A DNA stretch of 60,602 bases, filler included, from Hausera hauseri (lineage: Eukaryota), in NCBI GenBank assembly GCA_046269625.1. It is 10 parts of 10 records of this genome, joined end to end, with 100 filler letters (N's around TTAATTAATTAA, not from the genome) between each part and the next. Parts side by side here need not be neighbours in the genome. Positions count along the whole stretch, not along the records: positions 32,126 to 38,336 come from JBJURY010125428.1; 9 more parts are not named here. One strand, written 5' to 3'. Shown piece by piece: positions 9,570-58,890 of the stretch (position 1 is the stretch's first letter; each line of letters opens with the position of its first letter). The translations under genes were made by a program, and so were the position numbers. The notes beneath the pieces were generated by a model. It was given only the letters and a program-made list of their open reading frames with translations, was not told the origin of the DNA and made no database searches.

Positions 9570-12500
9570 ATGATTCCGTTGAAAAAAATCTCTTGGACAA
9601 AGAAAAAGTTGTCTGAACAAACCAAACATGAAAATCAAATGATAGTTGGGTACGAAAGTCATAATGAAAGTCTGGAACCTCGAATGAAGAATAAATCAGC
9701 TAAAAAAGCTTTATTAAAACAAAGTGGGTCCTTAGAATTCTCATCCGAAAGCAAATCCAAATCTGGGATTAGTATGAATGAAACAAAGAAAAACAGGAAT
9801 AAGGAACAGAAATTATCTGAAGATCTTATTGATAATAAATACATCAATGAACTGTCGAAGAACCAAGTAAGTAACAGGTCATCTGGTAAAAATTCGGTAA
9901 ATTCGAAAAACAAAATGAAAGGATCAGAGAATGAACCAGATACAAGATCGGACAAAGTAGCAGCATCATCTTTGGATGTGGTGAATTCTATAAAGAACTC
10001 TAGAAAAGGAAACATACATTCAGGCTCGAAAAAGCAGAACTGTCTGAAACCATCTTATGAAATGGAGTTACAACAACCTTCAGTTAATTTTTCCGACGTT
10101 GTTGATAGCTTGAAGAAACAAATGAACAGTGTATCTTCCAATACAACCAAGTCATCGAAGTTATCGTCATTTTCATTTGATAGTGATGCAGAACAGCAAA
10201 ATATGGTTGAACAATCTGATAATAAATTAGGTACTGAGAATAAAATAAAACAACCGGATAGTCTAAAAAGCAACCCACGAAAATCGGGAAGTAAAGATTC
10301 CGAGGGAATGAAGGTATCTAAGATGAGTGATGATGGCAGTGTAAAGCTGATATTTGAAGAAGTTCAACCGGACCGAAAACCATCTACTCAAATTGAAAAC
10401 GATAGGAAAAGATCTTCTCGACACTCAGGTACACCAGGTCAGAAAGAAAGTGTAACAGTAATCGTGAGCAAGCAGTCTTCTGAGTCACAAGCCAACAAAA
10501 GTATGAAGTTCGAGGATAACCAGATGCCATCTAACAATTCAGAAATGACAAATGATAAGATATATTCGAAGTTAAGTACGGAGAAAGAGTTTGTTATGCA
10601 ACCATCAACGAACACCATAAAATCCGAGAATGGAGGAAAATCGAAGAAAGGATCGTCGAAGATGAGTGATAAAGAAAATCCAAAGTTACATGAGAGCGTA
10701 AAATCAGATAGAATGCCATCCATTAAAATTTCGAAGATTGACGATGAGGATAAACCTCCTCAACACTCAACTACGTCAACACATAAAACAAGTGTGATAT
10801 TAAGCACAAACAGACCCTCATTGCACTCCGTCAAAAGCAGCAAGCTTGATAGTGGGAAATCGCCTGGACATTCAATAAAGTCAATTGATAAAATTAATCC
10901 CAGGTCAAGTTTGGGGAAAGCATCCGTGAAGAGTTTAAAGTTGATGGAAGAACCAAGTTCTCTCCGACGATCATCCATGGAAAGTGGTCAAGGAAATCCA
11001 AGACTAAGTGAGAACGCAAAGTCAGCAGATGAAGGAAAATCTCGACAGTCCATTATATCGAGTCGTAAAGGAAGTGCAGTCTTAAACGAAAATAGGCAGT
11101 CCATCAAAAGTGTGAAATTTGATGATGATGATGATAATGAAAAATTACGTAAAAGTTCAGGGAAGTCTAGTTTAGACAAATCAACTGCCAGAATACCATC
11201 TGAAAAGAGCGTAAAATCGGAGAATCAAACAAAATTAACTAAACGAGTATCTCAAGTGAATGATGAAGGAAATCCGAGATTAAGTGTTGGAACGAGGTCA
11301 GATGGAATTGCGTCCATGGGGATTGCAAAATTAGACGATGAGGATGTTTTCTCTCCACATTCAATTACACACAATCGTAAAGCAAGTGTAACACTAAACG
11401 TTAACAGACAATCCATTGGTTCTGTGAAAGATGTTCAATCAGAAGAATTACCGAATTCTAAAAGATTCAGTGGCAAAGATGATGTAATACTAATCGTAGA
11501 GAAACCGTCTAACATTTCATCATCTTTAAAAAGTATGAAGTTGGAAGACGGACTAAACATTCAGCGGCTGTCCAGCATGTCGAGTCGAAAAGCAAGTGTA
11601 TTATTAAATGTAGGTGGACCATCTGATGGACCACAATCAGTTAATAGTATTAAATATGAAGATGCAGCAAAATCACCGAAGAATTCTGAGACGTTAAATG
11701 CTAAAGGTCATGTAATACCCTCAAAGAGTAGTAGGACATCTCGTCAAGATTTTATGTCTAATGAACCAAGTTTAAAAGGTCAATCAAAGTCACTTGAGAA
11801 AAAAGGCAGTCTAAGTACTCCACCAGTTAGGAAAGACTATTTGGAGGGAAGTATGAAAAGCCATTCTACTAGACGGTCGAAGGACACTTCCAAGGGCAGT
11901 AAACATTCGGTAACACCAAAGCAGTCAGGCAATTTAAGTGACTTAGGAAGTTTTAGTGAACAATCGGACATTGGTGATGGTTCCCGGTACAACGTTGGAC
12001 AAGTAAATAAAGAACTTTTTCCGGAGAAAACTATATCTGCTAAACCGTCAGGAAAATCAACTGGTAAAGATGATATTTCAGGAATCGTGAAAACGCGTTC
12101 AGGTGAAAAACCTATTTTAGTACTAAAGGATTCAAACCTCCCTAAACGGTCGAAAGTTAGCCATGACAGTAGACATTCGGCAGATTTGAATGATGGAATT
12201 TCGGGTGTAAAAAACCGTTCTAGAGATGAAATTCCAGAAGTTGGGAATGAACAGTTTTCAGAGAAACATATATCTGACAAAAAGTCAGAAAGAACATTTA
12301 AAATAGACAATGACGTGGTTTTTGCGAAAAGTGCATCAAAAATATTAGAAGGATCGTTAGATAAGATTAAAGATAATGAGAACACAGACACAAGATCAGT
12401 AAGTACAAATATCTCCAGAAATACTCCAGATATAGCAAATTTGGAAAGTTTTAGTGATAAATCTCTGAGGAAAGGCGGCTCTCGAGATCAATCTGAAGAG

Positions 12501-15500
12501 GCCGATAAAGTCGGATTTGAGCAAAAGGTAAAAATACCATTATTTGGAAAACTGTCTTCAGTGCAAAAGGACTCACAACTACTGGATACGTGGATTGAAA
12601 AGGTTCAGACAGTCAAAGACGTTAGTGAAAAGTCCCAAGAAAAGTCCACCAGACAAGTTGCAGATTTGAAGAATTTCCGTGCGGAAAACAAAAAGACATC
12701 CAAACGATCAGTCGGTAAATCTCAAGAAGCAGAAGACGTTACAAAAGAAACAAAGGACGTTAGTAAGGACTCTAAGATTCAAAGAACGTCTATCAGACAG
12801 ATTTCAGAATTGGGAAATTTTCTCGAAGAATTGAAAAAGAAAGAGGCCATTTCCAAAGCCTCATCAGTAGGAAAACAGTCAACGGGACTAAAGGATGATG
12901 GTGGACGAATATCAGATTTGGCTGATGTAAGAACTTTGACTGAAGATTTGCAAACAAAGGAGGCCATGAAACAAACAAGCATTCAAAAAGAAATATCGAA
13001 AGTGTCTTCAGTTGGAAAACAGTCAACGGGACTAAAGGATGATGGTGGACGAATATCAGATTCGGCTGATGCAAGAACTGTGAGTGAAAATTTCAAAAAG
13101 AAAGAGTCCATGAAACAACCAAGCATCGAAAAAGAAATCTCGAAAGTGTCATCAGTTGGAATACGATCAGCAGGGCAAGGTGAAGCTGTAAAACGAGTAT
13201 CTGTTCAAAAAGTATCAGATTTGGCTGATGCAAGAACTTTGAGTGAACATTTGGAAAAGAAAGAGTCCATGAAACAACCAAGCATGGAAAAAGAAATGTC
13301 GAAAGTGTCATCAGTTGGAAAACGTTCAGCAGGGCAAAGCGAAAGAAATGAAAGAGTATCTGTTAGAAAAGTGTCAGATGTGGCCGACTTAGGATCGTTC
13401 AGTGAACACTTGGAAAAGAAAGAGTCCATGAAGCAACCAAGCGTGGAAAAAGAAATGTCGAAAGTGTCATCAGTCGGAATGCGCTCAGCGGGGCAAGGAG
13501 AAAGTGTCGAAGGAGTATCTGTTCGAAAAGCATCCGATTTGGCTGATGCAAGAACTTTGAGTGAACATTTGGAAAAAAAAGAGTCCACGAAACAACCAAG
13601 CATGGAAAAAGAAATGTCGAAAGTGTCATCAGTTGGAAAACGTTCAGCAGGGCAAAGAGAAAGTGTCAAACCAGTATCTGATCGACACGTATCAGATTTG
13701 TCTGATGTAAGAACTTTGAGTGAACATTTGGAAAATAAAGAGTCCACGAAACATGGAAGCATCGAGAAAGAAATCTCGAAAGTGTCGTCAGTCGGAATGC
13801 GCTCAGCGTGGCAAAGAGGAAGTGTCGAACTAGTATCTGTTCGAAAAGTATCAGATTTGGCTGATGCAAGAACTGTGAGTGAACATTTGGAAAAGAAAGA
13901 GTCCATGAGACAACCAAGCATCGAAAAAGAAATGTCGANNNNNNNNNNNNNNNNNNNNNNNNNNNNNNNNNNNNNNNNNNNNNNNNNNNNNNNNNNNNNN
14001 NNNNNNNNNNNNNNNNNNNNNNNNNNNNNNNNNNNNNNTGTCATCAGTTGGAAAACGTTCAGCGGGGCAAGGAGAAAGTGTCGAACGACTATCTGTTCGA
14101 AAAGTATCAGATTTGACTGATGCAAGGACTGTGAGTGAACATTTGGAAAATAAACAGTCAATGAAACAACGAAGCATCGATAGAGAAGTCTCGAAAGTGT
14201 CATCGGTAGGAAGACTTTCAGCGGGGCGAGGAGAAGCTGTGAAACGAATATCTGTTCGACAAGTAGCAGATTTGGCCGATCTAGGTTCGTTCAGTGAAGA
14301 TTTGAAAAGGGAAGAGTCCGCGAAACAACCAAGCATCGTAAAGGAAATCTCGAAAGTGTCATCAATTGGAATACGGTCCGCGGGGCAAGGAGAAGCTGTA
14401 AAACGTGTATCTGTTCGACAATTGGCAGATTTATCTGATGTAGGAAATTTCGGTGAATATATTGGAATTAAAGACATTCCACAACTAGCAGGAAAGAAAA
14501 TGTCGGCTTCTTACCAGTCAAAATCATCGATGGATACTGACTACCATAAAGCAAATCGAGGAAGCCTTCTAGAACCACCGCAAGATAAACTCAAAACAAC
14601 CCAAAGCAAAGTTTCCCAACAATCCCGTGTGCCATCCAAAACATCCCAAAACCTATCCAAAAAATCGACTGCAGTTGAATCGGAATTATCTCAACACTCT
14701 GTGAATTTGCGTTTATCCGAAAGTGACAAACGCCAGTCAAATGCAACGGCATCCATTAAAATTGGGTCGTCTGTCAACTCATTGAAGTTATTCAAACAAG
14801 CACCAGTAAGAAGTAGTGGAAACGTGAAAGACAGTATGGAGGAGTTGTCGGGTGTTGCATCTTATATTACTGGACTGCCATCTATTCAGTCAACCGGTTC
14901 AAAAGTCAAAAGTCTGAAATCCGTCAGTGATCTACAAGCATTACGTGAAATAGTTGTACCAATAAGTGCAGACCATTCACCAAAACATATTTTTAAACCA
15001 ACCTTCAAAATGCCACCAGAGAAAGCATCATCAATACAAACATCGAAAGTAAGACGAGCAACTACGTTTCCGTCGAGTGCGGAAAATCTCAAATCACAAC
15101 TTTCAAAGCAGATTGCCCCAAAGGTAAAACCAAAACGATCATCATCTCGACCAAAACGTAGAAAGCAAATGGTTAAGAAATCATCAGATGTTAGTCAACC
15201 AGACTCACCAGATATCATCCGCGAAGTCTGTGCAAAATTATCGGAAAGAGCAAAGGTATACCAAGAATGGGCAGTATTACGTTATAAGCGATGCGAACGA
15301 GTAGAGGTGAGTAACAGTCTGTTACTGCAATGGGCACTCAACATACAATCGTATCAAAATCCGCGATTGCGATTTAAGGAAGTAACCGACAAAATAAAAC
15401 TAAAATACCCCGTTAACGAATATTGCTACTGTGGAACATGCAGTCAATTTCCATTTAGTTCGATCAACAGGGTTCGAGAAAGTACGTTACCGGCATATAC

Positions 15501-16548
15501 CAATTTAGCGCAGGAAAATAAACCATTTCTGAAAAAAAAACCGTCATGCAAAATGTCACTTAGTTTGGAAGAGAAAAATGGTGGAATGTCAGGTAAGATA
15601 CAGGAACGTCGAACGTTATCGAATCACGAGAGGTCAAATCGTATTGACACTCAACGACCAAAGAAACTAAAATCAATAATCAGTAAATCTTGTAATGACC
15701 TCAGATATTTACAACTATCACTTAGCCTCACATGCAAAAATCCCGATAATCTAACCAAGACGAACCAACCGCGGTTAACATCCCAAAGTTCAAACCAAAA
15801 CTACAAAGACACAGACGTTGTACCTAATAAACTACCCAAACGAATCCAAATATCAGAAAGCTTTAATAACGAGAAAGGTGAACGATACTCTGGACCCGGA
15901 CTAAAAAGTCCAAAAACGTCCCACAAATCAATATACAAAACAAGTAAATCTTTCATCATTCCTCAGCTGGTGGACGATGCATTACCAATTCAGAAAACAT
16001 GGATCACAATATTGGACTGTAACGATAAATTCAACCGGCGTACCCATTGCAGAATGACGAAGAGCGAAACTAGCAGTCCACCAAAATGTAACCCATGTCC
16101 AATCAAAGCCATATATACGGTGAACAAACCTTGTCTAAAGTCCAAAAGTTGGCAATATGTTCAGGAGAGCGACTGGCAAAATACAGCCGTACAACGTACT
16201 ATCTCGAATGAAACATCATTTTCTTTGGATGAAGAACGACAATCTCCAACTTCTGAGAAACTCGATTTATTAAGACAACCATCCGCAGAACTAGAGTTTT
16301 ACACCGAGAAACTGGAACAACCAATTACAATACCATTCGATTGTGCTAAAGTATCACTACCGGAAAAAGACAATTGTTTAACATCATCATCAAAATTGGT
16401 ATCTTCATTGGAGTCTTTGTTTCATTCATCGGCAAGATTTCTCAATACAGAATTCTCCATAAATTCTTCAATTAGTTCGTCCTTAACTTCTCATGGTACA
16501 TTTTCAGACAAGAAAAAAATTGAACGTAGCTCCAGCAGTCAGTATTGA
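9570..16548 (+). CDS. Giant Ser/Lys/Glu-rich low-complexity protein (>=2293 aa) with a 53-aa tandem repeat array; one CDS across the scaffold gap
   Basis: Two long ORFs flank the 100-N gap. The flanks (...atgtcga | tgtcatcag...) join in frame if the true gap is aag plus n x 159 bp, as in neighbouring repeat units. Confidence 0.8.
12860..14455 (+). repeat. Coding tandem repeat, 159-bp / 53-aa unit
   Basis: Unit starts at 13068, 13227, 13386, 13545, 13704, 13863, 14119, 14278 and 14437, plus a shorter 144-bp unit at 12924. Unit ~DARTLSEHLEKKESMKQPSMEKEMSKVSSVGKRSAGQGEAVKRVSVRKVSDLA. Confidence 0.95.
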
Positions 16549-32025: not shown

Positions 32026-32987
32026 NNNNNNNNNNNNNNNNNNNNNNNNNNNNNNNNNNNNNNNNNNNNTTAATTAATTAANNNNNNNNNNNNNNNNNNN
32101 NNNNNNNNNNNNNNNNNNNNNNNNNCTCTCGCGCAAACACTGCAATATATACAGAATCCAGTTGAATGGTCACCAGGCTTTGACCTACATTGCCACTCCG
32201 AAGTAGCGGAAATTAGAAATGATCCACAACTGACGAGCGACGTACAAATTAATTTCACTATTAACAGAAATGGCAGAAATTAACGAAGTAATAGCGAAAG
32301 ACTAACAAATCGAATACGTCTGATAAAAGAAACCCGGTTACGCTTTGAGAAAAGACAACGTGAATTAAACGAATTACTAAGAGAAACAGAAATTTATAAG
32401 AACAAGTATTCCCTTGCGGAATCAGAAATGAACGACAAAATGGAATTTGTACAAAGATGGCAGAGTGATAGAATCACGGAAATGACTAGTTATCAAGAAA
32501 AGGTTTAATACAACTAGAAGACATGTGTCGATTAATAAAGCTAATACAACAAGCTTGCGGAAACGGTGATGGATTTAGGGTATCCGTCATGAAAATTATA
32601 CAGCCGCAATTAAGCGAATTACACGAAAGTGTCCAGGTCGGACATGCGGCACTAACGAACTACGAGTTACCCGACGCAGACAATGAAGCCGAATGGGATG
32701 ATTATCTCCAAGGACTAACCGAGCAAAGTCAAAGAACTCCAATGCATATTTATGAATCACCGACTGGTGCACAGAAAGCGAAAATCGATGTGCAAATGCT
32801 AATCGATCCTACACTAGTTGAAAAGGAACTGAGTAGTATGTTGAAAGTAAATATAATCAAAGATAAATTAAGGAAATTGATTCCAACCTTGAGTAAACTG
32901 TCCAGTGAAAATACCGCATACAGCGCTCTACCTAAACTCTTAATAAGAGAATACGCTAAGCTATTGAAAAATAAACCGGAAAATGAA

Positions 32988-33206
32988 ATTAAAGTGAAAG
33001 TATAGTCTGAAGGAATGGATGACGAGGAATTTGAATGTACTACCTATACTACCGTTGGGGACATAGAACAACGGATAATGGACAAAAATGGCAGAGAAGG
33101 AGTCAATTACAGACTCTATTTTAGAGGTAGGATATTAGATGAGCCAGAGTTCTTAGTAGACGTAGGAATTATACCACTCGAAGCAAATCGGATAATAGCA
33201 ATAATC
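32988..33206 (+). CDS. Ubiquitin-like domain inside the polyprotein (one in-frame TAG at 33003)
   Basis: TTVGDIEQRIMDKNG aligns to ubiquitin DTIENVKAKIQDKEG; YRLYFRGRILDEPEFLVDVGI aligns to [21 protein letters not shown]. No terminal GG. Confidence 0.8.
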
Positions 33207-33386
33207 GCGAGCGAACAAACCAAAGATAAAGCCATGAGAAAGGCACATGCAGTGCATTGTGTTGGAAAAATCATGGGGATTCAGGATGCCGCAATGTATT
33301 TCGAATATCTACAGACTGACAACGACAACCCACAATACGATAAAAACTTAGTTCCTCTAAGCGAAACTTTACCACCAATAAAAGCG

Positions 33387-33413
33387 AAACGACCGGTTGG
33401 AAGGCCGAGAAAA
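33387..33413 (+). other. AT-hook motif
   Basis: KRPVGRPRK (GRP core; VGRP rather than canonical RGRP). Confidence 0.55.
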
Positions 33414-33908
33414 ATAAAGGAAATTGACTATAATGCAGACCTAATTAGGGAATTGAGACAATTATCAGTACCCACTCCGAGCTCAGATAATGAAGAACTA
33501 ATAGAACTAATGAGAGATTTAATTAGGATAGTTAATTATACTGGACTCCAAGGTGACATATTATCCGAGAAAGAAAGGCTAATATACAGTGTAGATCGGA
33601 CCATAAAAACTTCGCGATTTAAATTATCTAAAAGCACCCTCCCTGATGAAACAGTGATTGACAGAATTATGATGGACAACACGACGGAAAAATTAAGGAA
33701 AGTCTTGATATATTTGGCAGTAAAAACTAATCCTCTCCGAGAAAATGAAAGTGAAAAGGCAATTGGATTAGCTAGAAAAGCTGCGAAAAGGATGCCCAAA
33801 GAAATAAAATGGGTCAAACTATTTGAAAAAGAGAACAATGTGAAAAGGACTAATAACTTAGAAGACATGGTACGGAACATCTCCTCAAGTAAAGGGAATG
33901 AATCTAAT

Positions 33909-35730
33909 TGGTTAATCAATCTATTAACAATAATGATGCTAGTAAAACAAATGCGAGCAGTCACTATATATGATTGTGACAAATTCAAGCTGGGCCAGAA
34001 ATATTCCTTAATGGACTTAGAAACATGCGAAGATGCGAGACCCCATAAGTTAGAAACAACAGAAAAAAGGTATATATTATATCAACAACGAGAATTAATC
34101 GCAATGGACGCGACAGAATGCATGATATGGAGATCTCGCAGTGTTTTTCATTGCGGCGCTATGCACGGGCATTCTTCAATTATTAAACCAACCACACCAT
34201 TAATCCCAATGAATGTGGATAGACAACATTATTTAGGAGCCCGGCTAACCTGTAAAATGGTTTGGGAGGGCATGGCGTTAGAAGCCCAAGAAGGGAAAAT
34301 CATTAGGGCTTACAAAGTGGTAGTCGGAAAACTAAATATGCACACCGGTTATTGTGTCGGAGGAGAGTATTACACTGGAAAGGGAAAGGAAGAAGGAATA
34401 ATTGTCGTGGATTTTTACGAAACTGAATTAAGATCCTTAAAGGCAATGTTTTATAGTGTCACCACACTATTTACTGAAAATCAAAAATGTCGCATACAAG
34501 ATGGCGCTTGTACGTTCCGAAGTTCAGTTGTGGTATGGAATACACCTTCTAAAAGAGATTGCAATTTCACCAAAATCAAAGAGTTAAAATTTAACGAGAC
34601 GACCAGAAAACGTTATACAAATCAAATGCACGCTAATACCAGGTCCAGAGAAGGCGTAGTAGAACAACAGATACCGACGATATTGATATCGGACGCGCAT
34701 GGGTTAAAGTTTATTAGGAAGGACATGATAATGCGTTGCAATGTAGTTATGTATGCCACAAACTACGAAGCATTTTTCGTAGCGGAGACTGAAATTAACA
34801 TGAAAACGTATGATTTGAAAACGCAAGACATAAGGATAGAGAATTATCTCAAAAATCGATACGATTATTTCTATTACAAAGGACAAACCGGAATAGCAGA
34901 ACTGTATCACAAAATGATAACAAATTACTGCAGATTAGATACTGAAGTCATGATAACCAAATTGGCTTTAATTTGCGCCAATCCAGAATTGGCATTACCA
35001 ATTTTACCAATGAAAGAAGTTGTTTTCGGACGAGTTACTGGAGAAGTTCTCCTAACTTACGAATGCGAAAAAAGAGACGTACCGATCAATGTAGAAGAGA
35101 AATGATGTATGCAGGAATTACCAGTCATCTATAAGAACGTGCCCATACTAGCGATGCCACTCAGTAGAGTATTATTAGCAAACTCAACTGAACCAACGAT
35201 ACTGAAGGAATGCAAAACGAGCCCAGGTAAGCCTATGTTTCGGCGTAGCAGTACGGACTGGATAAGCATACCTAATGGAGGCACCACCGCAGCCCCTAGC
35301 AAGTTAACTGGAACGAATCTAATCAAAGGACTATCGGAAGATAAATTCGAGGATACAGCTAACAAAGGGATTTATAGGCCAAAGGACATAGAAGCCTTTA
35401 GGCAATTCTTAGTCTCTCCACGACAACGAACTTGTTAACTGAATCGGGCCATGTCAATGGTCATGGACGATACCCGCTTTCACTCGAAATGAGAATCGTT
35501 GCTGGGCGTTAACCACTATCAAATGGTAACATCAGAAGTATTGTATAAAATGTGGGGAAGATTTTTGATTTTTGGACAAGCCGCATCTGGATTTTTAGCT
35601 ATTTACTTCTTAATCCAACTATTTAATGCAGTAATTCAGGCTATAATAAACGGATATGACATATTCACATTGACAGGATTCTCTTGCAAAATTTTGACCG
35701 CGATCATCACAACCTTTGGAAAGATGCTAA
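33909..35730 (+). CDS. env: Env-like chuvirus (Jingchuvirales)-type glycoprotein: internal signal peptide, ectodomain, TM region; point stops
   Basis: WLINLLTIMMLVKQMRA|VTIYDC, YSLMDLETC, ECMIWRSRSVFHCGAMHGHSSI, GRVTGEVLLTYEC, CMQELPVIY...PLSRVL and WGRFLIFGQAASGFLAIYFL follow the chuvirus G motif order. Confidence 0.85.
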
Positions 35731-36381
35731 AAGCATACGAGGAAAATCGATGGAAGAATGACGTAGAACGTCACATTGGGCATTATAATCGCTAACGACA
35801 AGGAAAGTCCTCGATTCTTAATAAACGAAAGAATAAAAAGACAATAATGCGGAAAGACGATTCGGACGATGACAAGCCTAAGAGAGGAGAAGTGACTTCT
35901 AGAATGAGGATGCACAAGATGTACTCAGTAATTAACGCACCGTTGCCCATTATGCCGCCAGCAGCACCAATATATGAAGACTGTGACCACAAATCAATCG
36001 CATCGTGTAGGTCAGAAATCTATCAAAAGCCTATCAATTATGAGGATCCTTATGAGAAGACAAAACAATATGGAATACTTTGAAAAATGAATGTTATCAA
36101 CCAAGGACCAACTGAAAACGACCATGGAATGTTATACTCAAAAAGAATACTGCGTCACATAGAATCGAAATCAACAATCTGGGAAAATCCAAAAATGTGT
36201 CCTATCTCGGGTTCACTACCCCAGGAACCACTCAATGACAACCGCGTTACTGAAATAACAAACAACGACTTGTATCCGAATGGAGAAATAAGACAATTAA
36301 GGAAAGATATCATCTCATCGTCAGAAATAACGATAAATGGACATAGAGTCTCTACAGTAAAACGGTAAAGATAGTGTCAAA

Positions 36382-38336
36382 TTGCTACCTTTTGCTAAAA
36401 TACACATCGAAGATTGGGAATTGTATGCATTAATCGACACCGGATCAGAAAAATCATTTATAAAATATGAATCTATACCAACCACGTTGCGAGACCAGTT
36501 ATGTCCACCCGCATCATCAGACCCAGGTAGCGTAGGAGCATTTGGACAAGTATCGAAGCCGAAATTTAAATGGACTCCTACCTTTTATATGATGGGTCAA
36601 GCACTTCAACACGAATTTGCAATAATGGATCAGTTAACAGACGATGTAGTACTAGGGTGCGATATATTGAAACAGATACCAGGTATGGCAATCGATGTGC
36701 ACAATGGAAAATTAATTGAACTCGAACCGATAAAAGGGGCAAAACTAATAAAAGAAAGGAAATCGGGCGAAGTATGGATTCCAGTAGATGAAGACATTCC
36801 GCCTAAGACGGAAATGATAATTTTCGCACAAATTCGACAAGATGAAGATCTGCCAGTATATTTCTAGCCTCAAGAGAATATCGATCCAAACCTCATGTTT
36901 AGTAACATTTTGTGTAGAGTAATGACGGGAAGAATACCTATCAGATTAGTAAACAATGCACCGATTCCACTAAGATTGCACGCTAATACTACTTTGGGTC
37001 ACACTTGCAGAGTATCGGCAGTGACAATAGAGGAGAAACCATACAAGTGTGCCGAATTTCCACCTTATGTTGAAACCAAATTCTCTCCCGAAGCGTATTG
37101 CAAATTTTACAAATTATTGTGTAAATTCTGCTCGATAATAGCGAAAAACAAAGAAGACATAGGTAGAGCAAAGGCTCTAAGGTTAACCATTCCATTGAGG
37201 AAGAAACCTGGCTCAAATGACGAAATCGATCTAGAAGAACAGAAAATGCTTAAATAGTATCCGCCTCCTCACTCATTGAGACCAGAAATAACTAAAGAAG
37301 TAGAGCGGACGTTGAAGGCCGACATAATTCGACCAAGTTATCGATCATGGTACTCAACCATACTGATGGTTAAAAGAAAGGAACCACAAAACATCGGTTT
37401 TGTATAAATTATGGCGCGTTAAACACGCTGATGATGAAAGACTCGTTTCCACTACCATCAGTAAAGGAGACATTAGATAGGCTATCAGGAGCAAAATCGT
37501 TCACCACTCTCGACTTACAATCGGGATACTGGCAAGTGGAAATCGAAGAAGAGAATCGTTATAAGGCAGCATTCAAAACACACAATAACGTATATGAATT
37601 TAATGTTATGCCTTTCGGAATCACCACAGGACCAGCCATTTTACTAGAATGATGAATAAGATGCTCATGGGACTTGGTCATGCATTCGCGTACTTAGACG
37701 ACGTGATGATAGCATCAAAAACAGAAGAAGAACACTTAAAGGATATTGAAAATACACTCATGAGACTGGAACAAGCAGGGTTGAAGTTAAACCCAAAGAA
37801 ATGTAAATGGGCAATGAACGCCGTATCGTACCTTGGACACATAGTAGGAGAAGGAGGATCAAAACCGGACAAATCTCTGCTAAATAAAATATCCGATTGT
37901 ATGGAACCACAGAATCAAAAAGAGTTAAGACATTGGTTAGGCCTATGTGGATATTACGCCACTTACGTACCAGATAATTCAAAAATTAACGCACCACTAT
38001 ATCACTTACTCAAAAAAGGAATTAGGTGGAGATGGACAGAAGTGGAACAAAAAAGCATTCGACGAAATGAAGAAAATTTTGAAAAGCGAACCAGTTTTAA
38101 GATACCCAGATTTTAACCTACCATTCATCATTAAAATATATGCAAGTAAAGAAGGTATAGGGTATGAATTAGCTCAGAAACGCGAAGACGAAGAACTAGA
38201 ACATCCAATAGCCTATGAGGGACGCTATTTAAAGAAGGCAGAAAAGAATTATTCAGTTACCGAATTAGAAACGCTAGCCGTTGAGGAAGCACTACGACAC
38301 TTTAATGTCTATGTTTACGGACAGAAGATTATAATA
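36382..38336 (+). pseudogene. pol: pol (aspartic protease, RT, RNase H) of copy A
   Basis: DTGS, DSFPLP, TLDLQSGYWQV, MPFG, YLDD, RH motifs. Frameshifted. Confidence 0.95.
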
Positions 38337-39172
38337 NNNNNNNNNNNNNNNNNNNNNNNNNNNNNNNNNNNNNNNNNNNNTTAATTAATTAANNNNNNNN
38401 NNNNNNNNNNNNNNNNNNNNNNNNNNNNNNNNNNNNCGATACTGTGTTTTGTGCCCATTTACATTTCTTTGGATTTAGTTTCAACCCTGCTTGTTTTAGT
38501 CGCATGAGTGTATTCTCAATGTCCTTTAAGTGTTCTTTTTGTTTTTGATGCTGTCATTACATCGTTCAAATACACGAAAACATGCTCAAGTCCCACGAGC
38601 ATCTTATTCATCATTCTAGTAAAAATAGCTGGTCCTGTGGTGATGCCAAAAGGCATAACATTAAATTCGTATACGCCATTGTGTGTTTTAAACGCTGCCT
38701 TATATTGATATTCTTCTTCGATTTCCACTTGTCAGTATCCCGATTGTAAGTCGAGAATGGTAAACCATTTCGCTCCTGATAGTCTGTCTAAAGCTTCCTT
38801 TACTGACGGTAGGGGAAACGAGTCTTTCATCATCAACGTGTTTAATGCCCGATAATCTATACAAAATCGATGTTTTGTAGTTCCTTTCTTTTTAACCATA
38901 AGTATAGGTGAATACAATAATCTGTAGCTTGGTCGAATTATATCGGCCTTTAACATTCGCTCTATCTCTTTAGTTATTTCTAGTCTCAATGAATGGGGAA
39001 GTGGGTACCATTTAGGCATTTTCTGTTCTTCTAGATCGATTTTGTCATTCGAGCTGGGTTTCTTCCTTAATGGGATTCTTAATTTCAGGGCTTTTGTTCT
39101 GCTTATGTCATCCTCATTTTGTGCGATTATTGAACAGTATTTGCATAGTAATTTGTAGAACTTGCAATACGC

Positions 39173-41575
39173 CTAAGGAGAGAATTTGGTTTTAACGTGA
39201 GGTGGGAATTCAGCGCATGTATATGGCTTTTCCTCTATTGTTACTGCCGATACTCTGCAAGTGTGACCTAAAGTAGTGTTAGCGCGTAATCTTACGGGGA
39301 TTGGTGCGTTGTTCGCTAATCTGATAGGTATTCGTCTCGTCACTACTTTACGTAGAATATTGCTAAACATAAGGTTTGGATCGATATTCTCTTGAGGCTC
39401 GAAGTATACTCGCAGATCTTCGTCCTGACGAACCTGTGCGAAAATTACCATTTCGGTTCTGGGCGAAATATCTTCATCTGCCGGAATCCATACTTTGCCC
39501 GATTTCCTTTCCTTTGTTACTTTTGTTCCTTTTGTCGGTTCGAGCTCAATTAATTTTCCGTTATGCACATCGATTGCCATGCCCGGTATTTGTTTCAATA
39601 TATCACAACCTAGTACTGCATCGTCTGTTAACTGGTCCATTATTGCGAATTCATGTTGAAGTGCTTGGCCCATCATATAAACGGTAGGAGTCCATTTAAA
39701 TTTTGGCTTCGATATTTGCCCAAATGCTCCTATGCTACCCGGATCTGATGAAAATGCTGGGCATAGTTGTTCCCGTAGTGTGGTTGGTATCGAATCGTGT
39801 TTTATAAACGATTTTTCTGATCCTGTGCCGATTAAGGCATATACTTCCCAGTCTTCAATGTATATTTTAGCCAACGGTCTGCCTTTTACTACTGTTCCAA
39901 AGCAATTCGACGCTGTCTTTGATTGTTTTGTGGTAGAGACTCTGTGTCCATTTATTGTTATCTCTGGCGACGAAATGATATCTTGCCTAAATTGTCTTAA
40001 TTCTTCGTTTAGATATAAATCGTTATTTGTCATTTCAGTCATATGGCTGTCGATGAGTGGTTCTTGGGATAGTGGACCGGAGGTCGAACACAGTTTTGGG
40101 TTTTCCCAGATCGTTGATTTTGATTCTATGTTTCGAGGTATCCTTTTTGAGTATAATATCCCGTGGTCGTCTTTTGTTAGCCCTTGGTTATTAATATTTA
40201 TTTTCCGTAATACACCATGTTGTTTTGTTCTTTCATAAGGATCTTCATAATCAATAGGCTTACGGTAGATGTCGGACTTATATAACATGACTGATCTCCG
40301 GTCGCAGTCTTCGTATATTGGTGAGGTTGGTGGCATGATAGGCAATGGCGCGTTAATCACGGAGTACATCTTGCGCATTTTCATCCTGGAACTTGCTTCT
40401 CCTCCATTAGGCTCGTAATAATCCGAATCATCCTTTTGTGTTGTTGTTTTCTTGTTTTCACGCCTATACAAAATTGAGGGTCTCCCTCGTCGTTTGCGAT
40501 TATAGTACCCGACGTGGCGTTCTACGTCATTTTTCCATCGATTTTCTTCGTAGGCCTTAAGTATTTTTCCAAAGGGTGTGATAATTGCAGTCAAAATTTT
40601 GCAGGAAAATCCTGTTAATGTGAATATTTCATATCCGTTGATAATGGCTTAGATTACTGCCTTAATTAGCTAAACTAAAAAGTAGATGGCTAGGAATCCA
40701 GATGCAGCTTGTCCGAAAATTAGAAACCTTCCCCAAATCATATGCGCTATTTCTGAAGTTACTCTTTGATAGTGATTGGCACCAAGTAATGATTCCAATT
40801 TTGCTTGAAAGCGGGTGTCATCTATTACCAATGACATGGCCCGATTCAGTTCATAAGTACTCTGTCGCGGAAATGCTAAGAATTGCCTAAAGACTTGTAT
40901 GTCCTTTGGTCTATAAATTCCTTTATTGGCTATGTCTTCGAACTTCTCTTCTGATAATTCTTTAATTATATTTGTTCCGGTTAGTTTATTATGGGCTGCA
41001 GCAGCGCCTCCATTAGGTAAGTTTATCCAGTCGGTTCCACTACGTCGGAACATGGGTTCACCTAGGCTCGTTTTGCATTCTTTCAGTATTTTTGGTTCAA
41101 TCGAGTTTGCCATTATTACCCTGGTGAGTGGCATTGCTAGTCTCGACATATTTTCATAGATGACTGGTAATTGTTGCATGCATCTTTTTTCTTCCGCGTT
41201 GATTGGCACGTTCCTTTTTTCACATTCGTAATTTAATAGGACTTCTCCAGTAACTCGTCCAAAGACACCTTCGTTCATTGGTATAATTGGTGATGCCAAT
41301 TTTGGGTTGGCATAGATTAAGGCCAGCTTGGTTCTCATGACTTCAGTATTTAATCTGCAGTCATTCATTCATGAAATAGTCATCTGGATTTTTGAGGTAA
41401 TTCTCGATCCGTATATCTTGCGTTTTCAAATCATACTTTTTTATGTTAATTTCGGTTTCTGCTACGAAATATGCTTCGTGCTTGGTGGCATACATAGCTA
41501 CATCACAGCGTGTTAACATATCCTTTCTAATAAACTTTAATCCGCGTGCATCCGATATCAATAGTATCGTATCGG
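39173..41575 (-). pseudogene. Glycoprotein C-terminal half - TM - tail - protease
   Basis: The 473-aa ORF runs without a stop from TAIITPFGKILK (end of TM region) to ALIGTGSEKSFI (protease). Confidence 0.9.
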
Positions 41576-44061
41576 CTATTGTGGGATCAAGTAACATTTG
41601 CACGTTGAATTTAGTTTTATGAGTATAAGTAGGTGACTCATAAATTTGTATTGGAGTTCTTTGACATTGCTCGTTAAACCTTGGATGTATTCATCCCACT
41701 CGGCATCATTATCCGCGTCAGGTAACTCGTAGTTCATTAGTGCTGCGTGTTCAACCTGGACTCTTTCGCGTAGTTCTCTCATTTATGGTTGCAATGTTTT
41801 CATTATGGATATCCTAAATCCATCTCCGTTCCCACAAGCTTGTTGTATAAATTTTATTAATCGGCACATTTCTTCTGGTTGTATCAAGGCTTTCTCTTGG
41901 TAGTTAATTACTTCTGCGATTCTGTCCCTTTGTCATCTTTGTATAAATTCCATTTTGTCGTTAATTTCAGATTCTGTAAGGGAATACTTGTTCTTGTAGA
42001 CTTTTGCTTCTCTCAGTAATTCGTTTAGCTCGCGTTATATTTTCTCGGAGCGTAACTGGGTTTCTTTTACCAGACTTATTCGATTTGTTAGTCGTTTGGC
42101 TACTACTTCGTCAATTTCTGCCATTTCTGTTAATAGTATGATTAATTTATGCGTTTGATTTAATACTTCAGCGTCCGGATCTATTGAGTCCATTAGCCTG
42201 CCTATGAACTTGGCCTCATCGCCTGTCAATTGAAGACCCTTTCTAATTTTTGTTAGTTCGGTGTTGCAATGTAGGACGAAGTCTGGTGTCCATTCTGCTG
42301 GATTCTGTAAGTATTGTAGTGTTTGCGCTATAGCGATCCGGTGATCGTTACATAGTTCTAATATTTCTATTTCTTGTGCTGAGATTTCCTTCAATGGTTT
42401 CTGCATTAGGCTCTGTATCCCTTCCCAATGGATGTTCGCTAAACTTCGCTGAAGATCACTTAGCTTGTTTCTTTTTCTATCATATCATATATCTTTGTTA
42501 GTGTTGTTTGATATTGATCCCTGCTCATAAATTCAAGTTCTCGGAATGATTCGAATTTCATTCGCAATTTTGCTTCATCTTCCATCGTACCCATATCTAG
42601 TAACATTTCCTCCAATTGGTCTTTCATTATAGGCTCAGCCGTAGCGAATTCTCTTAGTCCTTCATTTATTATCCCTGCTATGGAAGGTAACAAGTCTATC
42701 CACTTCTTTAGTTGTTTGGATATTGCCGGTTTGGTATAGACTATTTCGTTTAGTGTCTCAAGAGCTTATTTTAGTTCGTGACATGGCCTTCGTACAAATT
42801 CTATAATGTGTTTCACGTAGTTGAATTCTTCTTTATATTCCTCTAGTTTGAGTAGACAAGCGTGTATTATTCTCTGTGCTTCTGCTCTTTCAGGATGAAT
42901 TACACCGATTTTAAAATTATTAATTTTCATTCGTATTTCGTTTTCTCTTTCAATCCGAATTTCTAAATTTGGGTATTTTCGAGGGCTATCCTTTATCAGG
43001 CTGCACATTGCTATTAGAGGGGGAATATCAATTGGGTCTATACCCAATATCTTTAGGTCGGCTTTAGTCAGTTCATATACTGGCTTGCTATGCAGATAAG
43101 AAGTTATCACTTCTTCGATCTCATATATCAATCTTTCTAAATTACGCCTTACGCGTTTCAATTTTGGGTCAATTTTTAGTGCGTTTAATGATCCTTGTGC
43201 TTGATAAACTTGCTCGAGAAACGGCTTGTTTCTATTCCACCATATTTTCGTAAAGTTGACTCCACTCTTTGTCCGCAGTTCTAATTTATTTTGCCAATTT
43301 TCTATCCAGTCTTGAGGCGTTTCTTGCAGTTCGTAAGGTGTGTTTTCTTCCTTTTTCTGAGAACCGGGTTTAAGCTTTTATATAGCTTTTCTATAAATTG
43401 TTGTTCTTTTTCAGGGATATGCAACTGTTTGCTCATCTTCTGGAGTTTTGTTAAGCTGTCCTGTAGCCTTTCGGGATCATTCAGTGCGTCTGTTATTTTG
43501 GTTAGTTCGCTAGCATTTTTCCAATATTTTATAATTTTCCTAAATTTAATAGATTTTTCCTCTACTGATTCCTCTTCACTAGGTGGTAATGGACATATTT
43601 TGTTAATTTCATCGATATTCGAAATATTTGTTGTTTCCGGAAAGTCTTGGGTTATTACAGGGGTATTTAACTTCGTTTTATTTCTTAAAGTGATGGTAAA
43701 GTCTTCCTAAGTGAAGGGCTTCTACCTTTATTCTTAGTTATCTTGAGTACTAATGGCCCAATGAATTTACTCTCAACCTCGTCTGTTGTTTTATCCTTAT
43801 TTTGAGACACGACTTCGGTATCTGCGTCCAAGTCTACACTTAAAGACGTAGTCGGCTTTTCTTCTTCCGCTGCTCGATTTAGGTTTCTCTTCCTGGCCAT
43901 GTTAGTATTCTTAGGTTCTATAGCTTTTTCGTACTCCGTTTTCGGCTCTCTTAACCCATGATAAACTTCCATTTGCTGCAGCTTTTCTTTGTATTCCTTC
44001 CTGGCCTTAATTATTGTGGATTATTAGATTCGCCGATATTTTTTACATACCTTTGTAAGTC

Positions 44062-45350
44062 CTACATCTCGATAATCGTAGTCATATCACCTCGTTTTCC
44101 ATAAATTCCTTCCAAATTATCTTTTATCGTGCTAGTTTTACTAGTCTGTGAAAATGATACACTTCGTGGATTAGGGCATGATCTAGCTATATGTCCTTCC
44201 TTACCACATAAGTAACAAATAAGGTTTCCATCTTGGCCGATCCTTTGTCGTCCGTCTTCATTCACTGGTGATTGGGATCTACCTATTGTTTTGCTTTGAG
44301 CTTGCTTGTCGATACCGTTATTTCTATTTTCGAAACTCCAATTATCTGTATATCGGTTCTTATTGCTTCGGTCATTATTTTGGTTTCTATCCGAAGTATA
44401 GCCTGTTTTGTTATAAGTATTGTATGTGTTTCGATTATCACTAAAGTTCCTATTGTCATATCTCGTGCTGCGATTAGAGGCATTTTGAGCTCTATTCTCA
44501 TAGTCTCGGTCCTTATTATTATCGTTGAATCTTTTATTGTTTCGGTTCCTATCCCGATTATCGCGATCATTATTTCGGTCTTATCTATTGCTCTGCCTAG
44601 CGTATCTATCTAGTGCCATTTCTAAGTTCTGAGCTAATTGTAATGACGTCTCAAAATTGTCTGGTCGAGCTAAAATTAGTTGCTTAACTAAATCTGTGGA
44701 CCATATACCGTTTATTAAATGAGTTGTCATCATGACATCTAAATCTGGCGGACTCGCCTTTTCTGTCGCTTTGCGTTCTGCGTCTGTCTTTGCCTTCGCA
44801 GCATTAGCTATCCTTAGCGTACTCACGTAACTATTATCAAGTTTCTTTAGTGCGAATGCGAATTGAGTAACCGACTCGCCTTTTATTGCGTTCTATTCTG
44901 AAAGACCATAAGCTTTTGTTCTGGCGTAACTGTCGGCAATAGTTTACGATTTAGGGCTCCTACTACACAGGATAATGATTTCTTCTCATCATTAGTGAGT
45001 TCACTATAGGCGTCTGCGTTTAGATTTTTCAAGTATAAAGACAATCGTTTAATCATAACTTCGGGCGCAAGATTAGCACCTTCTGCAATCAACTTGTAGG
45101 TTCGTAAAATGTCATTTAGCCAGTCCGGGTCACCATTATATGCCGGTAAGTTCAAGGAATCGAACGTACATATATCGAGTTTTTGAGCTACGGCTGGGTT
45201 TTCTGTTAGTTTAGTGTCGGATAAACAGTGATTGTCTATTATCTTATCTTTAGTATAAAGTTTATTTCGTGTCTCTCTTCGATTAAATTTCTGTTGGCCG
45301 TTTACTAATAAGTTTTGATTTGAGTTGAACCTATCAACGTTGGCTCTCAA
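44062..45350 (-). pseudogene. gag: gag: capsid-like region, R/D/N-rich linker, CCHC zinc knuckle
   Basis: LPAYNGDP...LSLYLK...FQNRTQ..GESVTQFA; CYLCGKEGHIARSC at 44176-44217. Confidence 0.9.
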
Positions 45351-45500
45351 ATTAGTTTTTACTTAATTCCCTCTATCGACTTATGATCCCAATTTTAAAT
45401 TCTCGGCTTTTACTATATCAATTACTTGATGTAAATGACGCTATTCGCCGGTATGTCGTTAATTAGCTTCTCAACAGTAAAGTCTAGCGAGGTACAAACT

Positions 45501-45518
45501 GTCCTGCTAGGGTCGCCA
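45501..45518 (-). promoter_or_regulatory. Primer-binding site (tRNA-Arg type)
   Basis: TGGCGACCCTAGCAGGAC, 2 nt after the LTR end ...TATAACA. Confidence 0.85.
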
Positions 45519-45520
45519 AA

Positions 45521-45813: not shown

Positions 45814-46270
45814 ACAAATAATATTAATCTTTATTGAATACACGATCACGTACGGAAATAAATAGAAGTCAATAGTCTTTAGAGCTGTATGGCAATAGCA
45901 ATTTGAACTGGTTATAATGATATCAACGAAGTCTAGCTTGAACGACTCTAAGTCGGTTCACTTGAATGATACTAAAACAATGCCTCTCTATTCTCTGATC
46001 AAGCATGTTTATATAGTAGTGTTTCTCGTCGTATGAAAAATTTTCTAAATTTATCTTGGCATTTTCTGATTTCACATCGAATTATTTACATTTAAATTAT
46101 TTATCTATTATATACATGATTTCAACTTGCGCACAGCAATATTTGTTATATTTCTAAAATTAGTTAAATGACAAATTTATGTCTGGAATTCGATTTGTAA
46201 TAATTCTGAATATATTCCAATGACGAAGTATTGTGGTCCACTTGTTACATATGTTAAATTTCTCCTCCCT
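45814..46270 (-). mobile_element. PPT and interrupted 3' LTR of a RING-bearing element
   Basis: AGGGAGGAGAAA (46270-46259), then TTTAACATATGTAAC; TATATAAA at ~46010; AATAAA at ~45833. Confidence 0.65.
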
Positions 46271-46893
46271 GAGCGGCATCCTTGAAGGAGCCTATTGCCT
46301 CAGAAGAAGTGGCGTCTAAATGTCTGGGTTGTCTCAATTGATTCATTCTTTCTCGTAGGTCAGTATGAGAGTTTGATCTACCTTGGGTGGTTGATGGACT
46401 CATCTCCAGATTATAACTATGGTAAGGCTGGATTCGGACGATTCGTGTATAATTTTCGTTGGAGTAGTATTTTAATTCAGTAGCCTCTGCCCGACATAAT
46501 GGGCATGTCGTCTTCCCATTGTCGAGTGTCCATTTTTCCAGACAATCCCGGCAATATTTATGGCTGCAATTTTTGTTGTCTAAAACTACATAGCCTTGTC
46601 CTAGGCTTGCGTTGCATACAGGGCATTCACTATCTTCCTTATCTCAGTCGTTCCTATCCAAATCCACTTGGATTATTAACTCGATGGATTCAAATACAAG
46701 ACCATCTTCGTCTTTATATAGGTACCCGTGTATTACCTTTTGTTTGCGGTTAATGGCGCTCTTTCATGGGTCGCAATTTACTTGGATCAAGGTCCAATCC
46801 GCTAGAAAGTCTTTATCCAGGTATGGAATTGTCCCCTCTATTTTATTTTTTTGGTATTGTTTCTTTAGCAATATTCGAATTTGTTTGTCCATG
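46254..46893 (-). pseudogene. Retroelement 3' reading frame with a C3HC4 RING finger (not in the ORF track)
   Basis: 46625-46494 encodes CPVCNASLGQGYVVLDNKNCSHKYCRDCLEKWTLDNGKTTCPLC. The frame ends QGGEI* across the PPT. Two TGA stops lie upstream. Confidence 0.85.
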
Positions 46894-46993: not shown

Positions 46994-49900
46994 AGCAAAG
47001 CCCAGCTAGTGAATATTGCCGATTACATAGCAAACCAAGATGATTTTTTGTTCAATATAACTTACAAAACAATTGAAGAAATATACTCTGAGACCATTCA
47101 GAACTTTTGCAGAGTGAATTTTGAAACTTTGAGGAACCGTTTGGCTATCTATGCATCTAGTCCAGAAATTACCACAATAACCCTTCCCTTTGGCGAAGGA
47201 ATTCAAGGCAGATTACTAAGAGAAGTATGAAATACATACAAATGTAAACGATTACACTTACCCCTGATTGCTGGTACTCACTGCTACTCTGAGATACCTT
47301 TTAAGTATAATGAAGAAATCCGATATGTTCAACCGATTACCAGAGTACTTCTGGCATCACATACAATACCCAACGAAATCCAAAATTGTTCAGCACTGAA
47401 TAAACCATTTATCAAGTACCATAATCAGGATTTCTGGGTTAGATTACCCGACCGTGAAAGAGTTAAAGAAAGGCCGAAGAAGTTGACAATGGCGAATTTG
47501 AAACATGAAATTGAGACCAATATGTTCACTGACGTATCCAAATCCGCATTATACACTAAGAAAGAAATTGACTCATTTGTGAAATTTCTGGCCTATGCCC
47601 AATAAAGAGAGCAAATAATAAATCGCGGAATACACCCAGTAATCGACGACACTGTCGGAGAAAGAAAATGGGACACCTGATGCCTATGCTAAAATCGTTT
47701 CCAACTTATGGTATAAAATGTGGGGCGGATTCCTAAGATTCGGCCAAGTAGCCTCTGGGTTTCTGGCCATATAGGTCATTATACAGACTTTAAAAATCTG
47801 TATCAATTATGTATTAAACGCCTACAAAATCTATAACTTTACAGGACTATCTCTAAGCATAGTAGGTACTCTATTTTCCCCACTTGGTGAATTCATTAAA
47901 GCTTACCATGAGAAACAATGGCGAGGTAAACTAGAAAAACATGTCGATTATAAATCGAATAAGCAACTTCCAAGGGACATCCCGTCAAGTTTCGATGACA
48001 ACAATGCTCCTGGATATTATCCTACCACAAGGATTATAAAGGATACGAAAGGGAAACTAAGGTTTTTGAAATGAAAGGATAAAAATAGACCTAAATCACT
48101 TGCTGCGCCATATGAGAATAGAACAATGCTTATTTCTAGATTATAAATATTAACAGACTTGAGTGATCCGTATAGAAAAATGGAGCAGTATATAAAACTA
48201 CGTAATTTACCAAAATACTCTCAGGAAGAAATACGTCAATCCATTATTAAATGAAACATGGAAAACAACCGTGTAACATTACCAACATCACCTAAGTTAG
48301 GTATACTGCCAACTATACCTTATCACAAAACAACCCCATTAATGAAAGATCAAGTAGATAGAGAACCCTATTTAACGACCTCAGAATCCGTTGGTAAGCA
48401 AAACACAGACCTGGCTGAACTCAGAGGCAGCGAAAGGAATGGAAAACAATACTCAATCCTTGGAAAGCTTAGCGGTTATATTATCAAGCGGCACTACCCG
48501 AAATTGTTCAGCTAGTTACAGCTTGATAGAACCACATATAGATAATCATAACGATGTATTAACATTTCTCGAGCTGTTAAGGGATAATCGACCTCACACC
48601 ACAGTTTACTTTGATAGTTTTGACCTGAATGCTATGGTTGACACTGGAGCTAACGTTCCATTAATAGCAAAACATGCAATTCCAGAAGAATTACAATCTC
48701 AAATAAAATTGGCTACTAAAGACTCACCTGGTACTACTTCGGCTTTTCAGCAATGCAGTAAACCTTATGGATACTGGAAAAGTGTACCATGGATTTGCGG
48801 ACATAGTCAAGATAACTTTTGATGTAATGCTTACCTTGGATTTACGATGCATTTTGGGTATGAATGTGTTGCGAAAATTGGAAGGAGTACACATAAACTT
48901 ACAATCAGGATCAATTTGTTCAAATAATGAAGATAAACCCCCTAGCTGCAATAAAACAGACATTTGGATAGGACACGTTGAGAAAATATCAACCAATTCT
49001 CGAATGGTTATACATGCTAGAATAATTTTTCCAGACAACAGTGTCATTGAGTTTGCGCCGAAAACTCTTCGAAATGGGCTTATATTACCACACTATTGCG
49101 TTAATGTAATTGGAAGGACTATTACAGTAGATGTTTTAAACCCAACCCCAAACTATGTCACGTTGTTCACTAAAACAAAAATTGGATAGACCCTTGAGAC
49201 AACTCGTCGTGAGAATTACGATAAGAGAGTCGCGACTGTCTCTACCACAGAACAAGAAAATGCCGAAGATATATTAAACGTCGTTCTCGCAAAAGCGAAG
49301 AAAAATCTATCATATGAATATCTAGAAAGCTTCTCAGATCTTATTTTTGAGTATCTTGACATTTTTGCAAAGAATGAAACAGGTATTGGACGAACTGATT
49401 TAGTCAAATTCAAATTATCATTTATGATTGACCCGCTAACAGGAAAAGAAATAGATTTATTACGACAACCTATACCAAAATGGTACCCTCCTCCAAAAGT
49501 ACTCCAAAAGGAAGTTGAGAAACAAATTCAAACTATGCTCGATAAAGGTATTATAGAACCAAGTCAATCTCCATGGCCCTCTCCCATAGTTATGGCCAAG
49601 AAGGCTAATACAACTAAACAACGTTTGTGTGTAAATTACGTTACCTTAAATAAGCACCTGATGAATCATACTTATCCGATTCCTCGAATTCGAGATATAT
49701 AGACGAACTTAAGGATTGCAAATATTTTACCACTTTAGATTTACAAAATGGACTTTGGCAAATTCCTGTGGCTGAAGACGACCGATGGAAAACTGCATTC
49801 AAGACACACAACGGAGTCTATCAATTCACTCGTATGCCATTCGGCTTAAAAACATCACCCACATTCTTTCAAGAATTTATTCGCCTAGTACTAAAAGAAG

Positions 49901-58612: not shown

Positions 58613-58890
58613 AGATGTTAAGTTAAAAACCCTTTAAAATAAAAAATGGTTTGAGCCAGGAAGGGTCTGCACATGCGCAGAGAGTGGTGACACCTCTGGG
58701 CGCGAATCAATGAAAGAAATACCACCCACCTGTGTTTAGATACTTCTGATGGTTGAATGTTCGCCAGTCGATGGGTCAGGTTGCTGTTGACTCGTGGTAC
58801 GTCCATAGAATCATTGTAGTGGTCTGGTCCAGAAGGTTCGAAGTCCAACACATGACACTGAGCAGCGATTGGACAAACAGATACACATGT

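Follow-up and report, generated by a model that had tools for sequence, protein, structure and literature searches.

The window (the whole stretch of Hausera hauseri DNA that was analysed, 60,602 nucleotides) is made up of ten short contigs with spacers between them, and the region described here sits in contig 7 (32126-38336). This contig carries a decayed Ty3/gypsy element. By Pfam search, its fusion glycoprotein (family PF24664) comes before the protease, the reverse transcriptase (RT) and the RNase H (Table 1). The Env is a candidate for the gB-type, class III glycoproteins through its match to the Monjiviricetes fusion family, obtained by sequence. It is recovered in three pieces (E=1.5e-24, 1.7e-4 and 1.9e-15), and hydropathy places a transmembrane segment at about 35592-35648. 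The sister copy on contig 8 has a Gag with a zinc knuckle (zf-CCHC in Pfam) upstream, and its ORF at 39173-40648 holds the tail of Env and the protease in one frame. As gag lies upstream of env on contig 8 and env lies upstream of the protease, RT and RNase H on contig 7, the order is GAG-ENV-POL, as in errantiviruses. Judged from these sequences, the contig-7 element is a decayed GAG-ENV-POL Ty3/gypsy element with a predicted mononegavirus-like Env. The copy on contig 7 is dead.

Table 1. Features of the contig-7 element and its sister copy, in window positions
Feature	Position	Strand	Evidence
In-frame coding stretch upstream (171 aa), closing the long Gag-to-Env interval	32490..33002	+	ORF list
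Predicted type II Ubl: ubiquitin fold, no GG at the C-terminus	32985..33209	+	PF00240, AlphaFold model, Foldseek/VIA, relatives' profile, selection
In-frame stop, between Ubl strands 1 and 2	33003..33005	+	Sequence; Pfam match spans the stop
AT-hook-like / NLS-like basic motif KRPVGRPRK	33387..33413	+	Sequence; aligns with RGRP of P0010
Helical domain	33489..33887	+	AlphaFold helices, pLDDT 36-64
Hydrophobic signal-peptide-like stretch, internal, at the start of Env	33909..33959	+	Hydropathy
Env, Monjiviricetes-type (gB-like class) fusion glycoprotein, interrupted by stops	33918..35792	+	PF24664
Pol: protease, RT, RNase H (frameshifted), ended by the contig edge	36388..38336	+	PF00077, PF00078, PF17919
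Sister copy on contig 8, ~80% identical	38437..45520	-	tblastn, blastn

The upstream in-frame stretch gave no meaningful Pfam match and belongs to no known family. As far as 32817 the contig-8 copy has it too, and 38 of the 65 differences between them are at third codon positions. Contig 8 has a PBS-like site at 45523 after ...ACA, no second LTR was found within the window, and the joined coordinates of the two copies put Env about 5 kb from the PBS. Downstream of its Gag knuckle, and ahead of where the ubiquitin-like (Ubl) domain would lie, contig 8 contains about 650 aa of coiled-coil-like coding sequence of no known family (42035-44020, minus strand). A deletion at 41563-41576 (minus strand) has removed about 1.86 kb relative to contig 7 with the frame kept, and takes out the Ubl domain, the basic motif, the signal stretch and the first part of Env. 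The interval between protease and RT on contig 7 (36760-37030, plus strand) has by eye a degenerate dUTPase-like look, as reported for the planarian element Burro; Pfam was blank for its contig-8 equivalent.

Other parts of the window hold related and unrelated sequences. On contigs 2 and 9, where the original prediction proposed to look for the module, the sequence starts within Env and the region ahead of it is absent. Two further distant elements with env before pol occur at 46997-47951 (plus strand) and 7932-8876 (minus strand), with Env identities of 31-42% and upstream ends lost at contig edges. On contig 8, a RING finger over the Pfam cut-off (PF13639, E=7e-10) lies at 46254-46643 (minus strand). 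After it come a purine tract, some 0.7 kb of LTR-like sequence and then the PBS-like site. The RING is possibly 3' cargo belonging to a tandem element upstream; RING and Ubl in one family would make a parkin/UHRF1-like pairing. A search by pattern found no RING after the integrase in four long relatives. Contig 3 has two very long ORFs, of 1523 and 879 aa, on either side of a gap (9549-16548, plus strand), with tandem repeats of about 150-160 bases, blank in Pfam. Fragments of host genes lie on short contigs: a sugar transporter (3493-4104, plus strand) and a TCP-1 chaperonin (58891-59703, minus strand), the latter adjoining a gypsy element.

The ubiquitin-fold domain and its maintenance

The original prediction described a clear ubiquitin-like sequence without GG, followed by KRPVGRPRK. 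The motif is indeed encoded in the frame of the domain. "Clear" proved too strong, as PF00240 scores 19.0 bits after the in-frame stop and 20.7 bits when the stop is read across as X, against a gathering cut-off of 25.4; the suggested Pfam search thus returns a match (E=3.6e-4 across the stop, profile positions 2-59) that stays under the family threshold. The absence of GG and the fold itself, on the other hand, hold. No GG is present past strand 5, and likewise in four of five relatives, the fifth having a GG in its downstream basic patch. Nearly all PDB sequence matches of the domain are ubiquitin-fold proteins. A profile built from six segments of relatives, with the window excluded, ranks the domain first of 408 six-frame targets (E=0.0023), and its score exceeds 2000 of 2000 shuffles.

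The structure prediction called for by the original prediction gave a ubiquitin fold. With an eight-row alignment, AlphaFold reaches pLDDT 78-90 over residues 1-80, and Foldseek and VIA superpose the model on ubiquitin, SUMO and type II Ubls with Z of 10-12 and rmsd of 1.6-1.8 A over 72-76 residues (up to Z 12.3, at rmsd 1.8 and 76 residues aligned). The alignment rows were hand-picked by eye as Ubl-looking, which makes this fold evidence strong, not blind. The single-sequence model (pLDDT 46) was set aside, and the ubiquitin clusters returned by the ESM Atlas at 0.78-0.80 are a lead only. Word-indexed homologue searches with the region gave no match, nor did scans of metagenome and viral contigs, and both carry little weight. 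The domain is, by modelling, a predicted ubiquitin fold lacking GG.

Contig 10 carries a different Ubl-like segment, which ends in LRGG and is fused in frame ahead of Gag-like sequence in another gypsy element (57878-58633, minus strand). Pfam ubiquitin is blank for it and the best PDB match is ISG15 (E=0.2). It could be a host-cleaved N-terminal fusion. The two segments (the LRGG one at 58247-58492) were said to be dissimilar and they are, the local score of 27 being matched by 146 of 2000 shuffles. This dissimilarity and the positions of the two are compatible with separate origins, and are the basis for suggesting them.

The stop at 33003 breaks the Ubl domain of the contig-7 copy and is absent from the earlier description of the region. 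The five other in-frame stops of the same frame (up to 36365) are sense codons in the contig-8 copy, in the relatives P0002, P0006 and P0010 the frame stays open all the way from the zinc knuckle of Gag, across the Ubl, into Env, and no stable RNA structure or read-through signal was found 3' of the stop (z=-0.19). For these reasons the stop most likely represents decay of the contig-7 copy.

The state of the domain in the rest of the family was followed in the public run X1, the only run found with the stretch; no RNA run containing it was listed. X1 is possibly the window's own source, and its counts speak for copy number within a single genome and not for a distribution over species. On 32126-36500, 10422 X1 contigs align, and the Ubl bins are covered as their flanks are. 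On the Ubl alone 710 contigs align, with a full set of 21 difference rows. Two of these are private to the contig-7 copy (share >99.8%) and both are non-synonymous. The other 19 are segregating sites, 16 of them at third codon positions (P=7e-6). Synonymous changes account for 15 of the 19, where a fraction of 0.29 is expected (P=1.2e-5), which corresponds to pN/pS of ~0.11; the synonymous calls were classified by hand and the counts are of sites, not independent events. The surface residues of strands 3-4 have no non-synonymous variant at a share of at least 15% in the family. The variant listing over the Ubl appears blind to the ~31 letters nearest the aligned end, where the stop at 33003 lies, and the absence of variants there was rejected as evidence. 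Over the broader region, only 4 of 36 near-fixed differences fall at third positions, counted in the best-supported 40 of 931 rows, a selection that favours invariant sites. The near-fixed differences are a sign of private decay of the contig-7 copy.

The Ubl is a maintained, multicopy part of the element family under purifying selection. A type II, non-conjugatable Ubl (GG absent, multicopy, selected) that the family keeps, in line with the original prediction, is thereby supported. That prediction was to fall if no Ubl profile matched or if the domain occurred in this copy only. The profile match is weak and the fold firm, and the multicopy state together with the selection defeats the second objection.

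The region ahead of Env in the element and its relatives

The module had been placed just upstream of the Env signal peptide. KRPVGRPRK begins 59 aa past the Ubl and stops 165 aa short of the hydrophobic stretch, with the helical domain in between, so that this part of the description does not stand. The motif fits the AT-hook pattern (a GRP core with basic flanks) and scores 12.2-12.6 bits against PF02178 AT_hook, whose gathering cut-off is 17.4. The full AT-hook pattern arises in 1 of 20000 shuffles and GRP[RK] in 0.9%, both patterns having been picked after the motif was seen. As the original prediction had it, the motif may bind AT-rich DNA, which AT-hooks contact in the minor groove, or act as an NLS; it recurs in relatives. 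The hydrophobic stretch has its best 11-aa hydropathy (2.55) at 33912, the same position is hydrophobic in 14 of 14 relatives, and it is a signal-peptide-like candidate for the internal signal peptide of Env.

The helical domain corresponds, by its position in the alignment, to the Bcl-2-like segments of relatives. A profile of four such segments scores 7.7 bits on it, a score equalled by 5 of 2000 shuffles, and ranks it second of 408 (E=0.28). Pairwise scores against the same segments are at chance, as 196-783 of 1000 shuffles reach them. Pfam was blank for the domain and the ESM Atlas returned nothing. Fold searches of the model gave Ubl matches throughout and no Bcl-2 row, as the Ubl filled the listing, and a PDB sequence search with the linker gave chance matches alone. 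The domain is possibly a degenerate Bcl-2-like fold, to go by the profile and its position.

A HMMER search of protein representatives returned 125 Env relatives. Eighteen with sequence ahead of Env were examined, and 14 were counted after the four most distant had been dropped. These relatives are distant (Env identity ~30%) and differ in what precedes Env. P0010 has a Ubl, an RGRP motif and a Bcl-2-like domain, the motif aligning with KRPVGRPRK of the window; P0016 has a Ubl, a basic patch and a Bcl-2-like domain. P0006 has a Ubl, RGRGRP and low-complexity sequence, while P0002 has a Ubl and then Env. No Ubl match was obtained in P0011, P0014 and P0018, which extend from Gag to Env, so that a Ubl is missing in three of six such polyproteins. 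NCBI files P0002, a retroelement polyprotein with Env and Pol, under the name of a bacterial MAG; it is probably animal DNA in that bin.

Leave-one-out upheld four of the six picked Ubl segments, one of them weakly; P0027 and the first segment of P0016 failed it and were excluded as Ubls. The best match of the relatives' Ubl profile is the ubiquilin Ubl (E=2e-4). Pairwise identities among the Ubls are 10-23%, and by sequence the domain may have been captured repeatedly across lineages. PF00452 Bcl-2 is matched by three of eight aligned segments (best E=5.6e-5). The pattern [RKP]GRP[RK], which was picked after the sequences had been seen, occurs within 260 aa ahead of Env in 4 of the 14 relatives (shuffle mean 0.02), and 17674 residues after the start of Env contain none. 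Three of the four motif-bearing relatives form one clade in the Env tree, and with the window the motif is found in three lineages. On these alignments the Ubl, the GRP motif and the Bcl-2-like domain appear ahead of Env in varying combinations, and the Ubl is optional.

Comparison with known elements and a proposed role

A Ubl in this position had been implied to be new. This does not hold, as the giant gypsy-like LTR retrotransposons Burro/GYPSM1 of planarians have a Ubi2/SUMO-like domain (PF11976), flanked by MATH and BCL-2 and lying ahead of an Env in the same frame, and the authors propose that these elements meddle with apoptosis and ubiquitination (PMC6431247, Arkhipova and Yushenova 2019). 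The element described here resembles Burro in its Env in frame between gag and pol, its mononegavirus-like fusion protein, its ubiquitin-pathway cargo and its Ubl upstream of Env (PMC6431247). In Burro a BCL2-like motif lies between the Ubl and Env (PMC6431247), where contig 7 has the helical domain with its weak Bcl-2 profile score. Unlike Burro, the contig-7/8 element is far more compact, and eight contig-8 ORFs between PBS and Env have no Pfam match to the BIR, MATH and ankyrin domains of Burro, though these ORFs are fragmentary and small domains may escape. The contig-7 element also has the AT-hook-like motif, and an AT-hook is not mentioned for Burro in the available part of PMC6431247.

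Errantiviruses with the order GAG-ENV-POL and Env of the HSV/gB type are described from Nematoda, Bryozoa and Platyhelminthes (PMC13524379, Chary and Hayashi, eLife). The present element shares with them the gene order, the multicopy family and probably the type of Env, as far as the available part of that paper describes them, and differs in that the contig-7 copy is decayed. The words "ubiquitin" and "AT-hook" do not occur in the available main text of PMC13524379, and the available part of PMC5408684 reports no such Ubl or AT-hook domain. The Ubl cargo is thus of a known, published kind. In print, neither selection on the Ubl nor the recurrence of an AT-hook-like motif was found, though earlier reports or supplements may mention a Ubl or an AT-hook.

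The domain shares with the type II Ubls of ubiquilin, Rad23 and parkin the beta-grasp (Z 10.5-12.3) and the lack of a GG end. It is probably part of a larger protein as they are, to go by the open frames of P0002, P0006 and P0010; the contig-7 copy has its stop inside the domain. It differs from them in an identity of ~20% to all, a Tyr as the Ile44 equivalent, a score below the Pfam cut-off and the lack of a UBA partner domain. The nearest working analogy for the whole leader, by function and not by homology, is the Rem/Env signal peptide of MMTV. This is a long Env leader that is cut by signal peptidase, extracted by p97 and given a nuclear role; it has no Ubl itself, and a UbL attached to it leads to the proteasome and degradation (PMC5371415, in its available part).

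The reading preferred here, at a probability of roughly 0.45, is that the Ubl and the basic motif belong to an optional accessory segment that precedes the Env signal stretch on its cytosolic side and would act as a non-conjugated docking or turnover tag coupled to a nuclear or nucleic-acid signal. The fold, the selection, the multicopy state, the architecture of the relatives with their open frames and the Burro precedent support it. The intact element would make a single Gag-accessory-Env-Pol polyprotein, and by the inferred topology all sequence ahead of the internal signal stretch would be cytosolic. The element's protease would cut upstream and signal peptidase downstream, giving a leader of Ubl, basic motif and helical (perhaps Bcl-2-like) domain. 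The signal stretch would tether the cleaved leader to the ER membrane, for which tail-anchored Bcl-2 proteins are a comparison. The Ubl, which could not be conjugated, would then dock on the host ubiquitin-proteasome/p97 machinery or set turnover through it, using a contact surface other than the canonical Ile44 patch, and the basic motif would direct the released leader into the nucleus or to nucleic acid. Such a module would modulate the host or control the life-span of the leader, and would not be a core step of budding.

Several alternatives draw on the same observations. The Ubl and basic motif of a tethered leader might attach to capsid or RNA of the element itself, so coupling particles to the Env-bearing membrane, as a matrix-like adaptor; coronavirus nsp3 Ubl1, which binds nucleocapsid, and the foamy virus Env leader are working likenesses. 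The cytosolic side of the signal stretch is where such a leader would stand, the strong constraint within the family agrees with it, and a non-canonical Ile44 surface varying by lineage is expected of a partner that co-evolves with the element. We nonetheless regard the adaptor as unlikely, given that the Ubl is missing from half of the Gag-to-Env relatives and that its neighbours in Burro (MATH, BIR, Bcl-2) are host-pathway domains. A little more doubtful is a purely structural role, with the Ubl serving as a stable unit for folding or spacing, an aid to the folding or cutting of the giant polyprotein, and the motif as a plain NLS or linker. Purifying selection suits any folded domain, and the positions conserved among relatives (the equivalents of 56, 61 and 43) are of the core, not the surface. 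The repeated pairing with the GRP motif and the Bcl-2-like domain suggests a functional module instead, and the lack of non-synonymous variants at 15% or more on the strand 3-4 surface also speaks against structure alone.

The original prediction suggested that the Ubl could bind proteasome, p97 or ESCRT ubiquitin receptors during budding; in this alternative the Ubl would imitate ubiquitin and stand in for a late domain. Such mimicry agrees with the fold, with the RLYF-G motif, which retains the equivalents of Arg42, Leu43, Phe45 and Gly47, and with the absence of PPxY, PTAP and YPxL from 32490-33960. The conserved hydrophobic surface centred on Ile44 is lacking, however: its equivalent is Tyr in the window and His, Trp, Asp and Gln in the four supported relatives, whose alignment is approximate. 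The late motifs are also absent before Env in 13 of 14 relatives, Ubl present or not, and the Ubl is optional. These observations weigh against ubiquitin mimicry at an ESCRT budding step, which we consider very unlikely. Hardly credible in turn is a stop at 33003 that is fixed in the family and programmed, so that the Ubl folds only on read-through and the element switches between a Gag-side product and an Env-Pol extension. The stop does lie in the loop between strands 1 and 2 and no variant is listed at it, but the listing appears not to reach that end and the broader one holds the best 40 of 931 rows. The sense codons on contig 8, the open relatives and the lack of stable structure in the downstream RNA count against it as well.

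The accessory segment preferred above also has a bolder form, which is improbable as it stands: a self-contained Env-leader protein, cut from the polyprotein as a membrane-tethered module of Ubl, AT-hook and Bcl-2-like domain, would be pulled out of the ER by its ubiquitin fold, with no ubiquitylation, and end up in the nucleus or on apoptotic membranes. If true, invertebrates would have an equivalent of the MMTV signal peptide, one that carries its extraction tag within itself and is conserved among lineages with only 30% Env identity. For the family itself, no earlier report was found in which the Ubl cargo of elements with the order GAG-ENV-POL is under purifying selection. With this, and with an AT-hook-like motif that turns up between the Ubl and Env of three or more lineages, a list of odd domains becomes a testable module. 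The proposed leader would bear on the ways in which enveloped retrotransposons that make Env as part of one polyprotein manage membrane topology, turnover and the death of the host cell.
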